From a virus (lineage: Duplodnaviria; Caudoviricetes): DNA of 64,000 bases. The position numbers and the translations under genes were made by a program. Positions 18,136-55,204 of the stretch are shown here, piece after piece. Numbering within the stretch: position 1 is the stretch's first letter; each line of letters opens with the position of its first letter. The notes beneath the pieces were generated by a model. The model was not told where the DNA came from, ran no database searches, and saw only the letters and a program-made list of their open reading frames with translations. The stretch is taken from positions 1 to 64,000 of the IMG/VR virus record IMGVR_UViG_3300013947_000019; one strand, given 5' to 3'.

Positions 18136-18151
18136 TATAATATATATCTCA
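18136..18151 (-). promoter_or_regulatory. Early-like promoter motif
   Basis: TGAGATATATATTATA followed directly by the hairpin AGGTGAAGCAG...CTGCTTCACCT. Confidence 0.7.
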
Positions 18152-44549: not shown

Positions 44550-45090
44550 TTATAGTACGATTGCTCCAGGTCGCCCTGGAGCATAACTTAACCTATGATT
44601 AACGAGTGAAGTAGCAAAAGACAGAGGTGTATGTCATGGTACCTTATGCAGTGAAAGGAGATATCTACAATGAGCGATGTAGATTTATCATTGGAGGTCG
44701 GTTAAGTTTTGGTATCGTACTGAGGCAAGCCTCACCGGAGATAGAGATGAAAAATTATTCGCACATCCATTCCAGGTATTCCCTGATTTGGATGATATAA
44801 AAATGGATATTATCTGAAGAACCATCACTTCAGTAATACCCTTGGATGAGGTGTCCAATGATGATAAATATCAGATACTTGGCAGTTATAGATATAAGAG
44901 TTATGGGAAGTGGTGGAGTCTCTTATACCTGAGGTGGAATATCTGATATCATAAGTAATCCAGTATCCTTGTTAGTACTCAACAGATGGTTAGGATCAAC
45001 CGATTACTGGGAAGGAGGACTTAATATAGGTGAAATCAAATGTACTTTGTGGAGGTATACAACATGATTCGGTGGTGAATACCAAGCCCT
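44550..45090 (-). ncRNA. Putative ~540-nt structured RNA with multiple anti-Shine-Dalgarno motifs
   Basis: 650-nt gap with no ORF of 60 aa or more. Promoter AACA-ATTT-TATG at 45089-45102. More than 10 hairpins, with minus-strand GCGA and CUUG tetraloops. About 10 CCUCC/CACCUC/CUCCUUUC motifs. Confidence 0.6.
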
Positions 45091-45174
45091 CATAAAATTG
45101 TTAGTATATGTATAAAAATAAAATAATGAGAAAGAATTTGCCCGGGAGAGTAGTATCATCTCCCGGGCTTATCT

Positions 45175-45786: not shown

Positions 45787-46744
45787 CTTGAACTACCCAT
45801 AGTAACAACCATCCTATGGGAATAGACTATCCCTTGCAAGGGTCCATTATAATTGGTTCCTCATGCCGATATTTATAGTCGTTGCACCTTCTCTTCAACA
45901 TACTTTTCAATTTCTTTAGCTCGATTTTTTGGAATTTTTGGTTTTTCTTTTGGATACCTATATTCTTTGAAGAGAATTTCTTCCGCATACCATCTTGCAT
46001 AATATGCTTCTTCTTCATGTTCATAAGTTCCTAAATGTACCGATTTTCCATGAAGTTTGATTCGCGCAGCCCATTTACCATTATGATCATCAACACCACG
46101 ATAATTACTATTCATCTGGTTTTGAGATTTAGTAATGATGCGCAAATTACATCTTCTATTATCAAGCTTATTGTGATTAATATGATCAACAAATTGATCA
46201 GTACCTAGAATAACTCTATGCATAAATAAAGTAAGCTCATTAGTTCCTTTTATTTTATTCTTTGAATTCTTACTATTATTTATAGCATATCCAGAAGCAC
46301 TCTTTCTCCACTTAGTATATCGAACTTTATTGTAATCTTTGATATCAACCATTGCTTGGTCTACAAATTCACCATTTTTATCAAATAGATCGATATACAC
46401 TACATCATTTTTTATATGTGCAGTATTCGGAGTATACATAGTTCTAGGATTAGTATCAATCGGATGACCATATTTTTTAATTTGTTTATAATGCTTATTG
46501 CAAAGAGTTTGTCCAAAATATGCAATTTTACGATATAGCATTTTTCCACAAACATCACATTGAAAATGATATTCTTTCATATATACTACACCTCCTTTCT
46601 ATCTTGTTTGAGATATAGTATATATTTAAAATAAATTTATGTTAAAGAGCATGGCTCAGGATTACCCTTTTAGTTTAGTTTATAGGTTCGGGCTTCCCCT
46701 GAATTTCTATCGATTTATAATGCGGCTAAATATAGCACACCTTC
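45787..46744 (-). mobile_element. Group I intron (958 nt) in nrdD, with homing endonuclease
   Basis: P1 TGCGGT/GCCGCA with a canonical U.G pair; P7 GACTA/TAGTC (AAGGGATAGTCT); terminal G at 45787. Confidence 0.92.
45873..46580 (-). CDS. Intron-encoded HNH endonuclease with C-terminal AP2-like domain
   Basis: MHR...VDHINHNKLDNRRCNLR...QN; YRGV...KWAARI...HLGTY...EEA. Confidence 0.9.
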   Translation of the reverse strand: MKEYHFQCDVCGKMLYRKIAYFGQTLCNKHYKQIKKYGHPIDTNPRTMYTPNTAHIKNDVVYIDLFDKNGEFVDQAMVDIKDYNKVRYTKWRKSASGYAINNSKNSKNKIKGTNELTLFMHRVILGTDQFVDHINHNKLDNRRCNLRIITKSQNQMNSNYRGVDDHNGKWAARIKLHGKSVHLGTYEHEEEAYYARWYAEEILFKEYRYPKEKPKIPKNRAKEIEKYVEEKVQRL

Positions 46745-51991: not shown

Positions 51992-54187
51992 TTAAGTATT
52001 ATAGTAAGCCTTATCTAAGCCATAAACTGTATCGTCTACAGTAATTGTTTTATGAACTGCTACATCATCCGTTACATATACCGTATCATTGATATAGGAT
52101 GTCAAATGCTTTTCTTTCTGGTCAATTACACGAATTGGATCATGATCACCTAAGCGGAAAAAGACATTGATTGTATCCAATTGCACAGAAGATGCTTTGA
52201 ACACATTGATAGCCATTTTTAGATATTTCTCAATCAATGCACCATATGCACTTGGAGTATTTAAGAATAGATACTTCAGTTCATCACTATTAAATAAATC
52301 TTCTAACTTCTCAAGGATATAGATAATCATTTTATCCAAATCATTGGCATGATCCTTCATATCAATACTATCAAGTTTGGAACAAATGACAGGATCCAAA
52401 TCCTCCAGCATTTCATGATATGTATGAGCTTCAGTACCATCCATCTTTCTGAAGTCCTGCTTTTCCATCCAAGATGTATACATACATTTCTTAGCATTCG
52501 ATAATGCAATATACCGACGGATATCTGTAGTAACTTCCATCTCTTTACAAATAGCATCATACAGATTACGATTATAAACATATACATCAATCATCTGTTG
52601 ATCTTTTGCTTGACCAACTGGAAATTGTAATGCAGGAGGAGAATCATAATCTGGAATCAAGGTAATTCCATCATCAACATCTACTAATTTCTCATAAGAG
52701 TTGGCAATGGATCTAATTTCATCCATAATATCAGAACTATTAAATCGAAGAATCTCTTCAATATGATCAGGTTCATAGACAATATTACCATCAAAACCAG
52801 ATCTCTTAGCTAATGCTGCTAATAAGAATACAATCATTGTATATGCCTCTGATTTACCTGCAGCTGCATACATATTTGTACAATATATCTTAAACATATT
52901 TTCTCTAGAATGAAGTAGTAAGTTCAAGAAATAACATACTTCAAAGGTAAGTGCAGTTAAATCATATGTGGCCTCTACATCAATGTATTTTGTCATCATC
53001 AGATTAAAATCTTCTTGCAGAAGATCTTTTCTTTCTTCTTCTGTCAACTGCCAAAGATAATCATTGTTGACAACCGTTTCATATGGTGTAATATCCTCTG
53101 GCTGATAACTAATCTCGTGATCTTCAATAGGAGCTTTTACAAAATGTAAATCGTTATCTTGATCAGGATCTCCTGTGAAGATAATATTACCATCATTATC
53201 CTTTGGTTGCGTTTTCATCAAGAAGTATCTCTTTGCATCAAAGTTCTCCATAGAGAAAATCTTACAAAGATCGACTAATACACCATCGGTACCTTTTACC
53301 ATAAGAATATTATCAAGTGCTAGTACTAGGCGTCTCTTAAACGTAAATGGAAAGTTTTCAAAATATTTCTTTAAACCATATGATTCAAGAATTGCATCTA
53401 ATACTTCCTCAAAATTCAGATAAGCAGCTTCATCAGGAACCAATAGATTTCTAATAGCTAATGTAATCATTAATGTACCAATAATGGGATCATATAAAGT
53501 CTTATTGGTAAACATGTCACGATTATATACCGTTGCCATCAGATATCGTCTGGCTCCATAATATTCCTTCTCGAACATAGATTGAACCATACTATTAGAT
53601 GGAACACCAATACGAAGGATTTCAAAAGGCTTAGCCAGTCGAGCATCGATAATATCAATCTTATTGATACCTAAATATTGAAGATATTCTTTATCAGGAT
53701 TCTCTTCAATTAGTTTATCAATTGTACCTCTTGTTTGGAGATATGCAATTTGCTCAACGGAAAGCTCATGAATGGGAACATCGGCTGGGATACGAGTATC
53801 ATCAGTAATATAGATCCAAAAATGATCATTCATAGGAGGCTGACCATTTAACATCCGATAATACTCATTCTTCTCTACATAGTTCTCTACTACTCGTTTA
53901 GATTGTTCATCTACAATAACAGATCGAAGAGCTTGAGGAATATTATTAGGATCTCGGTAACAATCAGTCACTTCTTGTGGACTCATATATTTTTCAAGAA
54001 TATCAATATCAAATTCTCTAAAGTCATAAAAATACCTGCTTCCAGTTAAGCAGGCATAGTATAACTCAAAAGCTCTGATACTATCAATATCCTCAGCAGC
54101 TTGTGCTAAGTCCTGACGTTTGACAACTAAGTTATCCAACATCATCAAAGTATCTTTATAGAGTGACTTAAGGAACTCATATGTCAT
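51992..54187 (-). CDS. Probable baseplate protein, 731 aa
   Basis: LMVKGT..VL..LC.IF resembles the P2 gpI-type KGT motif; late-like promoter at 54236-54249. Confidence 0.5.
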   Translation of the reverse strand: MTYEFLKSLYKDTLMMLDNLVVKRQDLAQAAEDIDSIRAFELYYACLTGSRYFYDFREFDIDILEKYMSPQEVTDCYRDPNNIPQALRSVIVDEQSKRVVENYVEKNEYYRMLNGQPPMNDHFWIYITDDTRIPADVPIHELSVEQIAYLQTRGTIDKLIEENPDKEYLQYLGINKIDIIDARLAKPFEILRIGVPSNSMVQSMFEKEYYGARRYLMATVYNRDMFTNKTLYDPIIGTLMITLAIRNLLVPDEAAYLNFEEVLDAILESYGLKKYFENFPFTFKRRLVLALDNILMVKGTDGVLVDLCKIFSMENFDAKRYFLMKTQPKDNDGNIIFTGDPDQDNDLHFVKAPIEDHEISYQPEDITPYETVVNNDYLWQLTEEERKDLLQEDFNLMMTKYIDVEATYDLTALTFEVCYFLNLLLHSRENMFKIYCTNMYAAAGKSEAYTMIVFLLAALAKRSGFDGNIVYEPDHIEEILRFNSSDIMDEIRSIANSYEKLVDVDDGITLIPDYDSPPALQFPVGQAKDQQMIDVYVYNRNLYDAICKEMEVTTDIRRYIALSNAKKCMYTSWMEKQDFRKMDGTEAHTYHEMLEDLDPVICSKLDSIDMKDHANDLDKMIIYILEKLEDLFNSDELKYLFLNTPSAYGALIEKYLKMAINVFKASSVQLDTINVFFRLGDHDPIRVIDQKEKHLTSYINDTVYVTDDVAVHKTITVDDTVYGLDKAYYNT

Positions 54188-54264
54188 GTGATGTTTCCAC
54201 CACCTTTCTATAAGAGAATTATCACAATGTCTTACTTTATACTGTTGTTCCGGGGTGTATCGAT

Positions 54265-54485
54265 TAAAAGATGAGAATCAGGCCTGGGACCAACCCAGAC
54301 CTGATCTCAAAGAAAGGAGTAACCAATGTAAACCATGCCTAACCCGCCAGCAAGTTTACCGCATCTTTGATGTAGTCTACCCCGCAGAAGACTACATCCC
54401 TACTAAAAAAGGAGGTGTAGGAAAAATGAACAAAAGAGGAGCAAGAGTATCGAGCAGGTATCGTTTTAAGCGTAGAACGTACCTA
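54265..54485 (-). ncRNA. Putative ~220-nt sRNA with three anti-SD motifs, its own promoter and terminator
   Basis: AACA-ATAT-TATAGG at 54482-54495; five hairpins; terminal hairpin with G.U pair and U tract on the minus strand. Confidence 0.6.
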
Positions 54486-54534
54486 TAATATTGTTATATA
54501 ATTATTTCTATAATAGTTAAAAGGAGGATCTATT

Positions 54535-55167
54535 ATGGGAAAAAAGAAAGAGTCACTCTATGTATGGGGACGTGGTAGACACGAAGATGAAAAATTAGCA
54601 TTCGGAGCAGATCCTGACATTATTCTTCATGACTATGATCTATATACTAAATTCGTAAAAGGTATTGAACATGCTGTGCGAAAAGATGATCGATATACCA
54701 AATATGTGGGAAAGATTCGTATGTCTGGTTTCAATCATTGTGCAGTACTTGGTCATGCTGCAGATAATATGGATAAAGTTGAACTTGAAATGCATCATGG
54801 TCCTATCTTTAACTTATTTGATATTTGTGATATCGTCTTAAAACATTGCTTAAATAAAGGTGATATAGATAACCTGACTACATTTGATGTAGCAGATATC
54901 GTACTTACTGAGCATGAAAAAGATCATATTCAAGTAGTTATGCTGACACAAACTGCTCATAAAGCTGCTCATAAATCTAATATGTTTATTGATACCAGAG
55001 CTAGTGTTGGCAGACTTGATAAATTCATTGATAAATTCTATGATGGGATGGAAGATGATCATTGGGATAAAATTAGTAGATACTTGGATAGATGTAAGAA
55101 ATATGGCGGAACTTTGGATAAAGGTTTATTTGATACTGTTGAAAAGCTGACTGAATATAAAAAATAA
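54535..55167 (+). CDS. HNH-fold protein
   Basis: C....ELEMHHGP...MLTQTAHKAAH; paralogous to 63209-63982. Confidence 0.6.
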   Translation: MGKKKESLYVWGRGRHEDEKLAFGADPDIILHDYDLYTKFVKGIEHAVRKDDRYTKYVGKIRMSGFNHCAVLGHAADNMDKVELEMHHGPIFNLFDICDIVLKHCLNKGDIDNLTTFDVADIVLTEHEKDHIQVVMLTQTAHKAAHKSNMFIDTRASVGRLDKFIDKFYDGMEDDHWDKISRYLDRCKKYGGTLDKGLFDTVEKLTEYKK

Positions 55168-55204
55168 AAGATCCCCGGGAGTTACCCCGGGGATCCTTCT
55201 TTTT
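55166..55204. terminator. Bidirectional terminator
   Basis: GATCCCCGGG-agtta-CCCCGGGGATC inverted repeat with A/T tracts. Confidence 0.8.

Follow-up and report, generated by a model that had tools for sequence, protein, structure and literature searches.

The question raised by this locus is what occupies the 347-bp gap that separates two diverging genes of a jumbo bacteriophage, one for a virion structural protein of 731 amino acids (aa) and one for a 210-aa protein of no assigned function. The DNA analyzed, referred to here as the window, is a stretch of 64,000 nucleotides (nt), the first 64 kb of the IMG/VR record IMGVR_UViG_3300013947_000019, which comprises 259,863 bp and is rated complete. 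The record encodes split RNA polymerase beta pieces resembling those of AR9 and PBS1, along with an anaerobic ribonucleotide reductase, and the phage is an uncultivated AR9-like jumbo phage of gut Bacillota, a relative of Bacillus phage AR9. The best overall explanation of the gap, to which we assign a probability of about 0.55, is a stand-alone gene for a late noncoding RNA of about 220 nt that would pair with translation start regions. The existence of a real noncoding transcription unit under selection is very probable on the comparisons presented here, and for the proposal that the RNA works by pairing in trans with ribosome-binding regions we see even odds. The features of the gap and its borders are as follows.

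54535-55167, plus strand: gene of the 210-aa protein, function not assigned (phrog_12252).
54476-54487, plus strand: opposite arm of the promoter palindrome, AACG-TACCTA-TA, 48 nt before the 210-aa gene.
54484-54495, minus strand: late promoter P1, AACA-ATATTA-TA (AACAATATTATA), which fits the AR9 late consensus.
54456-54484, minus strand: 5'-terminal hairpin from +1, from a single-sequence fold.
54431-54442, minus strand: tract 1, GCUCCUCUUUUG, a weak match to the anti-Shine-Dalgarno (anti-SD) sequence, 5 nt only.
54405-54428, minus strand: tract 2, CAUUUUUCCUACACCUCCUUUUUU, of the form CAU-N8-CACCUCCUUU, with a 10-nt identity to the anti-SD sequence of the 16S-tail type.
54421-54399, minus strand: stem CCUAC/GUAGG of tract 2, read from the sequence.
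54369-54398, minus strand: internal hairpin GAUGUAGUCU/AGACUACAUC, marked by covariation.
54327-54360, minus strand: internal hairpin GUAAAC/GUUUAC, seen in the fold.
54308-54328, minus strand: tract 3, CAUUGGUUACUCCUUUCUUUG, of the form CAU-N6-CUCCUUUCU, with a 9-nt anti-SD match, directly before the terminator.
54264-54308, minus strand: terminator, a hairpin (54308-54273) with one G.U pair and a U-rich tail, AUCUUUU.
54238-54249, minus strand: late promoter P2, AACAACAGTATA, of the 731-aa virion gene, 51 nt before it.
51992-54187, minus strand: gene of the 731-aa virion structural protein (phrog_20751).

The unit begins at P1, which follows the late promoter rule of AR9, AACA-(6N)-T-A/G (PMC5312081). 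The AACA lies at 54495-54492 and is followed by six bases, the T at 54485 and the A at 54484, so that by this rule A54484 is the predicted start of the P1 transcript. The intergenic regions of the genome contain two over-represented motifs, one late and one early, that mirror the AR9 promoters (PMC5312081). The late motif AACA-N4-TATA[AG] occurs in 35 copies, 24 of which fall in the 9% of the genome that is intergenic; 49 intergenic matches to the late motif lie mostly 20-90 nt ahead of a gene on the same strand. P1 is also one half of a 20-bp palindrome, AACA-ATAT-TATA-GGTA-CGTT (54476-54495), and its other half probably drives late transcription of the 210-aa gene: AACG-N4-TATA[AG] has four genomic copies, each of them intergenic, and relatives have an AAC[GAC]-N6-TA arm at the same place. 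With its own arm 48 nt upstream, the 210-aa gene would have a short leader and thus would not need the gap as a 5' untranslated region (UTR). Transcripts from the two arms would begin 3 nt from each other and run in opposite directions, one into the RNA unit and one toward the 210-aa gene, and this back-to-back overlap is retained in relatives. The early-promoter consensus, TTGAGATATATAYTATA-N3-GTGA, is close to the AR9 form AAATATATATTAT-(6N)-G; about 25 good copies were seen, mostly just upstream of genes, among them those at window positions 18148, 27695 and 60772, all on the minus strand.

The downstream limit of the unit is set by a terminator and by P2. A terminator scan matched 54306-54276 with 13 pairs, seven of them GC, and the tail CTCATCTTTT; over the region, the scan found four sites against 0.4 in shuffled sequences. 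All 16 pairs of the hairpin are kept in close relatives, and on the plus strand no U tract follows it. The AR9 polymerases are known to end transcripts at predicted terminators (PMC5312081). Minus-strand transcripts arriving from upstream genes are predicted, by the same kind of scan, to end at a two-way terminator at 55166-55199, so the hairpin at 54308 could only serve P1. P2 lies outside the RNA, at 54249-54238, and it is conserved in relatives with an CCGGAACA extension; the sequence-only reading of this locus was thus right that the next gene has its own promoter. The further elements which that reading had named, namely the promoter, the 5' hairpin, three CU-rich tracts, the stems and the terminator, were all found where it had placed them. 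The minus-strand RNA folds better than shuffled sequences (z = -4.0), and so does the plus strand (z = -3.5), as is expected for hairpins. All 11 pairs of the 5' hairpin are kept in five close relatives, and 94% of cells of the GUAAAC/GUUUAC hairpin are paired in close relatives, with no covariation.

Evidence for selection comes from related phages, whose loci were retrieved from IMG/VR, JGI/ENA metagenomes and Logan assemblies through homologs of the two flanking proteins. The divergent pair is widespread, with 66 of 80 IMG/VR loci having it. The clade that bears the unit consists of phages whose flanking proteins are about 47% or more identical to those of the window. In this clade, 14 separate lineages, with flanking proteins 48-96% identical to the window's, have the same layout in the same slot and on the strand of the virion-gene homolog, with a homolog of the 210-aa gene on the other side in nearly all of them. 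The shared layout consists of an AACA-N6-TA promoter, usually a 5' hairpin, 150-355 nt with no conserved reading frame, one or more CU-rich tracts (one to several per unit across lineages), a GC hairpin with a U tract, and P2. P1 is kept in all 14 lineages, a GC hairpin and U tract stand at the terminator place in every one, about 11 of the 14 have a predicted hairpin whose first base lies at +1 to +4, and a CUCCUUU-type tract lies just 5' of the terminator in nearly every lineage. The sequence of the unit itself is barely alignable between lineages or clades. In distant jumbo phages the gap is short and there is no unit. Two loci (L109, L126) have an empty slot, a 118-nt gap, and in three (L106, L108, L111) a minus-strand gene whose product has about 165 aa takes the place of the RNA; a slot that is empty or differently filled in some lineages suggests an independent, exchangeable late transcription unit. 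The claim that the unit is an independent one on the minus strand, running from a late promoter to an intrinsic-type terminator and holding no conserved gene, is borne out by this layout.

Sequence constraint is also visible over short distances. A 47-nt block, 54448-54401, which contains tracts 1 and 2, is unchanged among close relatives although the unit as a whole differs by about 10%; the chance of such an invariant block is approximately 0.9^47 = 0.007. Tract 2 is invariant within the close clade, that is, the window together with L099, L003, L100 and L101 (alignments A3 and A4). In L103, whose 210-aa protein is 90% identical, the middle of the unit is scrambled while tract 3 and the terminator are almost identical. 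In four other relatives (L021, L022, L023, L027), the loop of the 5' hairpin has a conserved motif, GCGUUUUUGAAG or AGCGUUUCUGAAG, though the stems differ, which hints at a binding site.

The substitutions within stems indicate which strand folds. In the stem at 54398-54369, four pairs have changed on both sides between two sub-clades and two further pairs have changed to G.U, and 100% of cells are paired. Over five local helices in the close clade, 268 of 274 cells pair on the minus strand, compared with 241 on the plus strand. Between L016 and L017, all four substitutions at paired positions turn C-G to U.G or G.U to A-U, changes that are valid only on the minus strand, the strand of the unit. 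These are few evolutionary events, all in the same direction, and they point to the minus strand as the folded RNA.

The tracts between the stems resemble the end of the 16S ribosomal RNA (rRNA). They were scored against the anti-SD reference CACCTCCTTTCT, which is complementary to AGAAAGGAGGTG and corresponds to the 16S 3' tail, and only tracts of at least 6-7 nt were used because 4-nt counts are not above composition. In the window, two matches of at least 7 nt were found where dinucleotide shuffles predict 0.24 (p = 0.012), and the 14 lineages together have 19 against 2.0 +/- 1.4, with none on the opposite strand. The mean predicted unpaired probability of the tracts is 0.75, compared with 0.44 for the whole RNAs; tract 2, which is complementary to an SD sequence plus start codon, reaches 0.86 and tract 3 reaches 0.77. 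A CAU triplet lies 4-10 nt upstream in 14 of 28 tracts, where 19% is expected (p = 1.6e-4). At this spacing, which is that of a start codon, the tracts are complementary to the whole initiation region, SD and AUG together. The proposal that these are tracts directed against ribosome-binding sites is therefore upheld by enrichment, strand specificity and predicted exposure of the anti-SD and anti-AUG sequences, tract 1 with its 5-nt match being the weakest. A reading of the CU tracts as a Rho-utilization site was considered and rejected, given that they are short and rich in U and that the phage uses its own polymerase.

From the computed features, namely the signals, the conserved layout, the strand-specific pairing, the enrichment and exposure of the tracts and the lack of a conserved frame, we infer that the RNA is made, ends at the hairpin and acts by base pairing. 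The non-virion RNA polymerase of the phage would start at A54484 from one arm of the two-way late promoter, and transcription would stop at the hairpin and U tract at 54308-54264. The resulting RNA would be capped by its 5' hairpin and by the terminator hairpin at its 3' end. Stable small RNAs of Bacillota typically show such an arrangement. Between the two hairpins, the RNA would expose tracts that match the 16S rRNA 3' tail (CACCUCCUUU, CUCCUUUCU), each preceded by CAU at start-codon spacing, and these would most likely pair with the SD and start-codon regions of messenger RNAs (mRNAs) late in infection. The pairing may block access of the ribosome or alter mRNA decay.

The search for targets bears on how such pairing would be directed. 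The RNA was scored against the start regions of about 257 genes of the phage's own genome by ungapped and start-codon-anchored matching, which replaced RNA duplex energies because the latter returned long looped duplexes that were uninterpretable. The best matches align the SD and AUG in register. The top match is the gene at 45873-46580 on the minus strand, which encodes an endonuclease with HNH_3 and AP2 domains and whose start agrees with the complement of tract 2 at 20 of 24 bases; this gene is free-standing and lies between nrdG-like and nrdD genes. The literal strings that the sequence-only reading had offered as leads to a specific antisense target matched the locus itself and this endonuclease start, the latter with 4 mismatches in 24, and the idea of a specific target among them was not sustained.

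Several results weigh against the pairing explanation or against parts of it. Tracts taken from nine other lineages score on this genome as well as the unit's own (z = 2.5-3.7 versus 3.1). The relative G001 is 99% complete and has an identical tract 2, but a site of the endonuclease type is absent there within 3 mismatches, and the sole copy of AAGGAGGTGTAG in its genome is the RNA locus itself. On these two grounds the endonuclease start was rejected as a specific target. Predicted pairing is no stronger at gene starts that follow early promoters than at those that follow late ones (p = 0.57), so a late shut-off of early genes is unsupported by complementarity. Motifs of 4 nt in C and U are not enriched in the window (3 versus 2.5 in dinucleotide shuffles, p = 0.46), and L017 has lost one of the anti-SD tracts of L016. 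The CCUAC/GUAGG stem that would hold tract 2 in its loop has lost one pair in three relatives, and an alternative fold pairs tract 2 with an GGCGGGUUAGG stretch. On the plus strand, four of the five substitutions in a 20-aa frame are synonymous in the close clade (p about 0.02-0.05). By inspection across lineages, moreover, the tract on the terminator side does not co-change with the ribosome site of either flanking gene. Because foreign tracts score equally, the site is missing in G001, early and late genes are alike and the neighbors' sites do not co-change, the complementarity appears generic rather than aimed at one gene.

A more far-reaching possibility is that of a general mask. The RNA would copy the anti-SD tail of the 16S rRNA (CACCUCCUUU) together with the CAU anticodon of the initiator transfer RNA (tRNA) at their natural spacing, two to four times per molecule, and would cover translation start regions in bulk late in infection. 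We regard this more specific idea as unlikely. If true, the RNA would compete with ribosomes on many messages at once, unlike the classical small RNAs that act on one gene, and jumbo phages may possess a class-wide, RNA-based control of translation initiation.

Among the alternatives to a stand-alone RNA, a cis-acting leader has to be weighed first. In this explanation, which we consider improbable, the P1 transcript is the upstream part of the virion mRNA, the hairpin is an attenuator, and the short RNA is a by-product or a small RNA derived from the 5' UTR. The unit does lie always directly upstream of the virion gene and on the same strand, and for giant phages small RNAs have been reported that come from transcripts ending early within a 5' UTR, one such RNA being conserved ahead of a tail gene (PMC11512511), while 5' UTRs of up to 491 nt occur in AR9 (PMC5312081). 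As read from the sequence, the terminator-side anti-SD tract could also pair with the ribosome site of the virion gene, AGAAAGGUGG, with one mismatch, but the two do not co-change across lineages. A full-consensus P2 with its conserved upstream extension nevertheless stands between the terminator and the gene in every lineage, and P2 alone serves the same virion gene where the slot is empty (L109, L126) or holds a protein gene (L106, L108, L111). The sequence of the unit also turns over far too fast for a ligand-sensing leader.

A structured late RNA could instead act through a protein, either as a decoy of the 16S 3' tail that soaks up a host or phage factor recognizing or cutting that tail, or as a scaffold. 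The identity of the tracts to the 16S 3' tail over 8-10 nt, the conservation of the 5' loop motif GCGUUUUUGAAG in several lineages and the failure of start-region scoring to find a specific mRNA target are all compatible with a role of this kind. Nothing in the 16S tail, by comparison, corresponds to the CAU at start-codon spacing, a triplet that pairing with an initiation region would require. Nor is the unit associated with any candidate partner protein; the 210-aa gene has a much wider distribution than the RNA, and the fold of its product matched nothing in the PDB. We consider action through a protein doubtful.

The plus strand might be the functional one, with its SD-ATG pairs starting tiny translated frames such as the 20-aa MNKRGARVSSRYRFKRRTYL and the minus-strand RNA being a cis-antisense partner or irrelevant. 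An SD-like sequence with an ATG at the correct spacing does recur in most lineages, and the substitution pattern of the 20-aa frame noted above speaks for translation. Each of its synonymous substitutions, however, is also at a position neutral for RNA structure, and the first half of the frame lacks any synonymous change, which indicates constraint at the nucleotide level. The frame is kept only in the closest clade. In L103 it is replaced, at 90% flanking-protein identity, by an unrelated frame of 14 aa. Across lineages the ATG mini-frames of the plus strand range from 1 to more than 65 codons, and their peptides are unrelated in sequence; the ATG of an 'ATG TAA' pair is lost in L003. On the plus strand, neither an early nor a late promoter motif occurs within this unit or within 14 others, the 210-aa gene having its own arm 48 nt upstream, and the G.U pairs favor folding of the minus strand. 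Larger frames fare no better. A 77-aa plus-strand frame, the choice of the open reading frame (ORF) caller, is interrupted in both L099 (98.5% identical) and L100 by single-base indels, and where it is open in relatives it carries many amino-acid changes, so that the gene caller wrongly annotates the stretch as a 77-aa protein. The sole ORF on the minus strand is a 20-codon TTG frame with no SD sequence. A translated plus-strand element is unlikely, and a functional plus strand as a whole is quite improbable.

That the unit has no function of its own, with the minus arm firing as a by-product and the hairpin insulating the virion gene, is very improbable: P1 does share a palindrome with the likely promoter arm of the 210-aa gene, and some lineages leave the slot empty or fill it otherwise, but a mere spacer would not keep compensatory changes in an internal stem, a 47-nt invariant block, long anti-SD tracts at nine times the expected number and on one strand only, and a length of 150-355 nt in 14 lineages.

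The stand-alone late RNA had also been proposed to belong to a family with a locus at 44.5-45.1 kb. That locus contains a late-promoter stretch of the AACA-N6-TG type at 44560-45102 on the minus strand, with a noncoding unit of 532 nt from 45091. Seven six-mer anti-SD tracts occur in this unit where 1.3 are expected, the opposite strand has none, four of the seven have a CAU upstream, and the fold of the unit has a z of -5.9. A search of the 260-kb genome with nhmmer and short-word blastn found no second copy of the unit at 54484, only the unit itself. A shared design can thus be retained from the family proposal, while the sequence similarity implied by it is missing; the two loci would appear to have a design in common with no detectable common ancestry. 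When the genome was scanned for like units with a simple caller, ten orphan late-promoter units were obtained, of which only those at 54484 and 45091 pair several CTCC with zero GGAG. The 45091 unit is similar in its tracts but has neither a U-tract terminator of its own nor a second promoter after one, and so may be a long 5' leader of a 226-aa gene.

Among known systems, the proposed RNA is mechanistically closest to RoxS/RsaE and to c4/sar, and by position to the short transcripts of 201phi2-1 and phiKZ. In RoxS and RsaE of Bacillota, C-rich regions bind SD sequences, and RoxS blocks initiation (PMC5419742, PMC8216469, PMC6158497). The RNA described here is predicted to be, like them, a stand-alone transcript that has a terminator hairpin and exposes several pyrimidine-rich regions complementary to ribosome-binding sites. 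It differs in that its seeds copy the 16S tail (CUCCUUU) where theirs are CCCC, in that many seeds have an added CAU at start-codon spacing, and in that it is phage-encoded behind an AR9-type late promoter, with no sequence or Rfam similarity. The c4 RNA of P1/P7 and the sar RNA of P22 are phage small RNAs whose loops pair around a ribosome-binding site and block translation (PMC12197685). They resemble the present RNA in being phage-encoded and complementary to ribosome-binding sites, but they act on one gene, ant, in temperate phages of Enterobacteria, whereas no specific target was found here, the phage is a jumbo phage of virulent type that encodes its own RNA polymerases, and there is no Rfam match to c4. 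Over the 64-kb window there is no Rfam match at gathering score, and at E up to 10 only chance-level matches occur around the locus. The RNA is not a member of RsaE/RoxS, c4 or another Rfam family, given the lack of an Rfam match, the different seeds and promoter type, and the lack of a defined target.

Two further sets of transcripts are similar in position or in promoter. The sRNA005 of 201phi2-1 and a phiKZ small RNA upstream of the tail gene gp182 were found by transcript mapping (PMC11512511). Like these, the RNA proposed here would be a short transcript that ends at a terminator soon after its start, conserved upstream of a virion structural gene. The likeness is one of position; those RNAs are derived from 5' UTRs in phiKZ-like Pseudomonas phages with no anti-SD design reported, and here a separate promoter stands between the terminator and the structural gene. 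In AR9, late promoters that precede no protein gene exist, and seven of them drive antisense RNA (PMC5312081). The promoter logic, AACA-(6N)-T-A/G, is the same, but the gene context of AR9 g242 differs, no counterpart of the unit was found there, and the AR9 transcripts are not described as anti-SD RNAs.

A conserved late RNA directed generically against ribosome sites would mean a post-transcriptional layer in phages that bring two RNA polymerases of their own. It also offers a concrete object for experiment, an RNA of about 220 nt with defined predicted ends and three tracts to mutate. To our knowledge, very little is known about regulatory RNAs of virulent phages. In a 2025 review of phage-derived small RNAs, the word 'jumbo' does not occur (PMC12197685).

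Turning to the surroundings of the unit, the 210-aa protein has homologs in AR9 (g242), PBS1, phiR1-37 and Staphylococcus jumbo phages; its EMHHGPIF motif is invariant, and Cys and His residues are conserved. Its AlphaFold model is good, with a predicted local distance difference test (pLDDT) score of 82. A comparison with the PDB gave no significant match, the best being the T5 SciA endonuclease at E 1.4, and therefore no clue to the function of the RNA. Antisense RNA has been reported for AR9 g242 by Lavysh et al. The AR9 transcript data were tried as a model and set aside: g242 is 32% identical to the 210-aa protein but is in a different gene context, so the AR9 RNA data do not transfer. 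No tRNA or transfer-messenger RNA (tmRNA) genes were found in a search of the window, and blastn against 50,697 phage records gave no match to cultured-phage DNA. A weak Rfam match to 'ncr952' spans 54028-54204 with E 0.015, far under the gathering score. A terminator-like hairpin with a U tract lies at 54032-54057 on the minus strand, about 130 nt within the virion gene. Just before the AUG of this gene, a small hairpin, GUGGUG-GAAA-CAUCAC (54188-54203, minus strand), would bury its SD sequence, and this hairpin is kept in the close clade and in L103.

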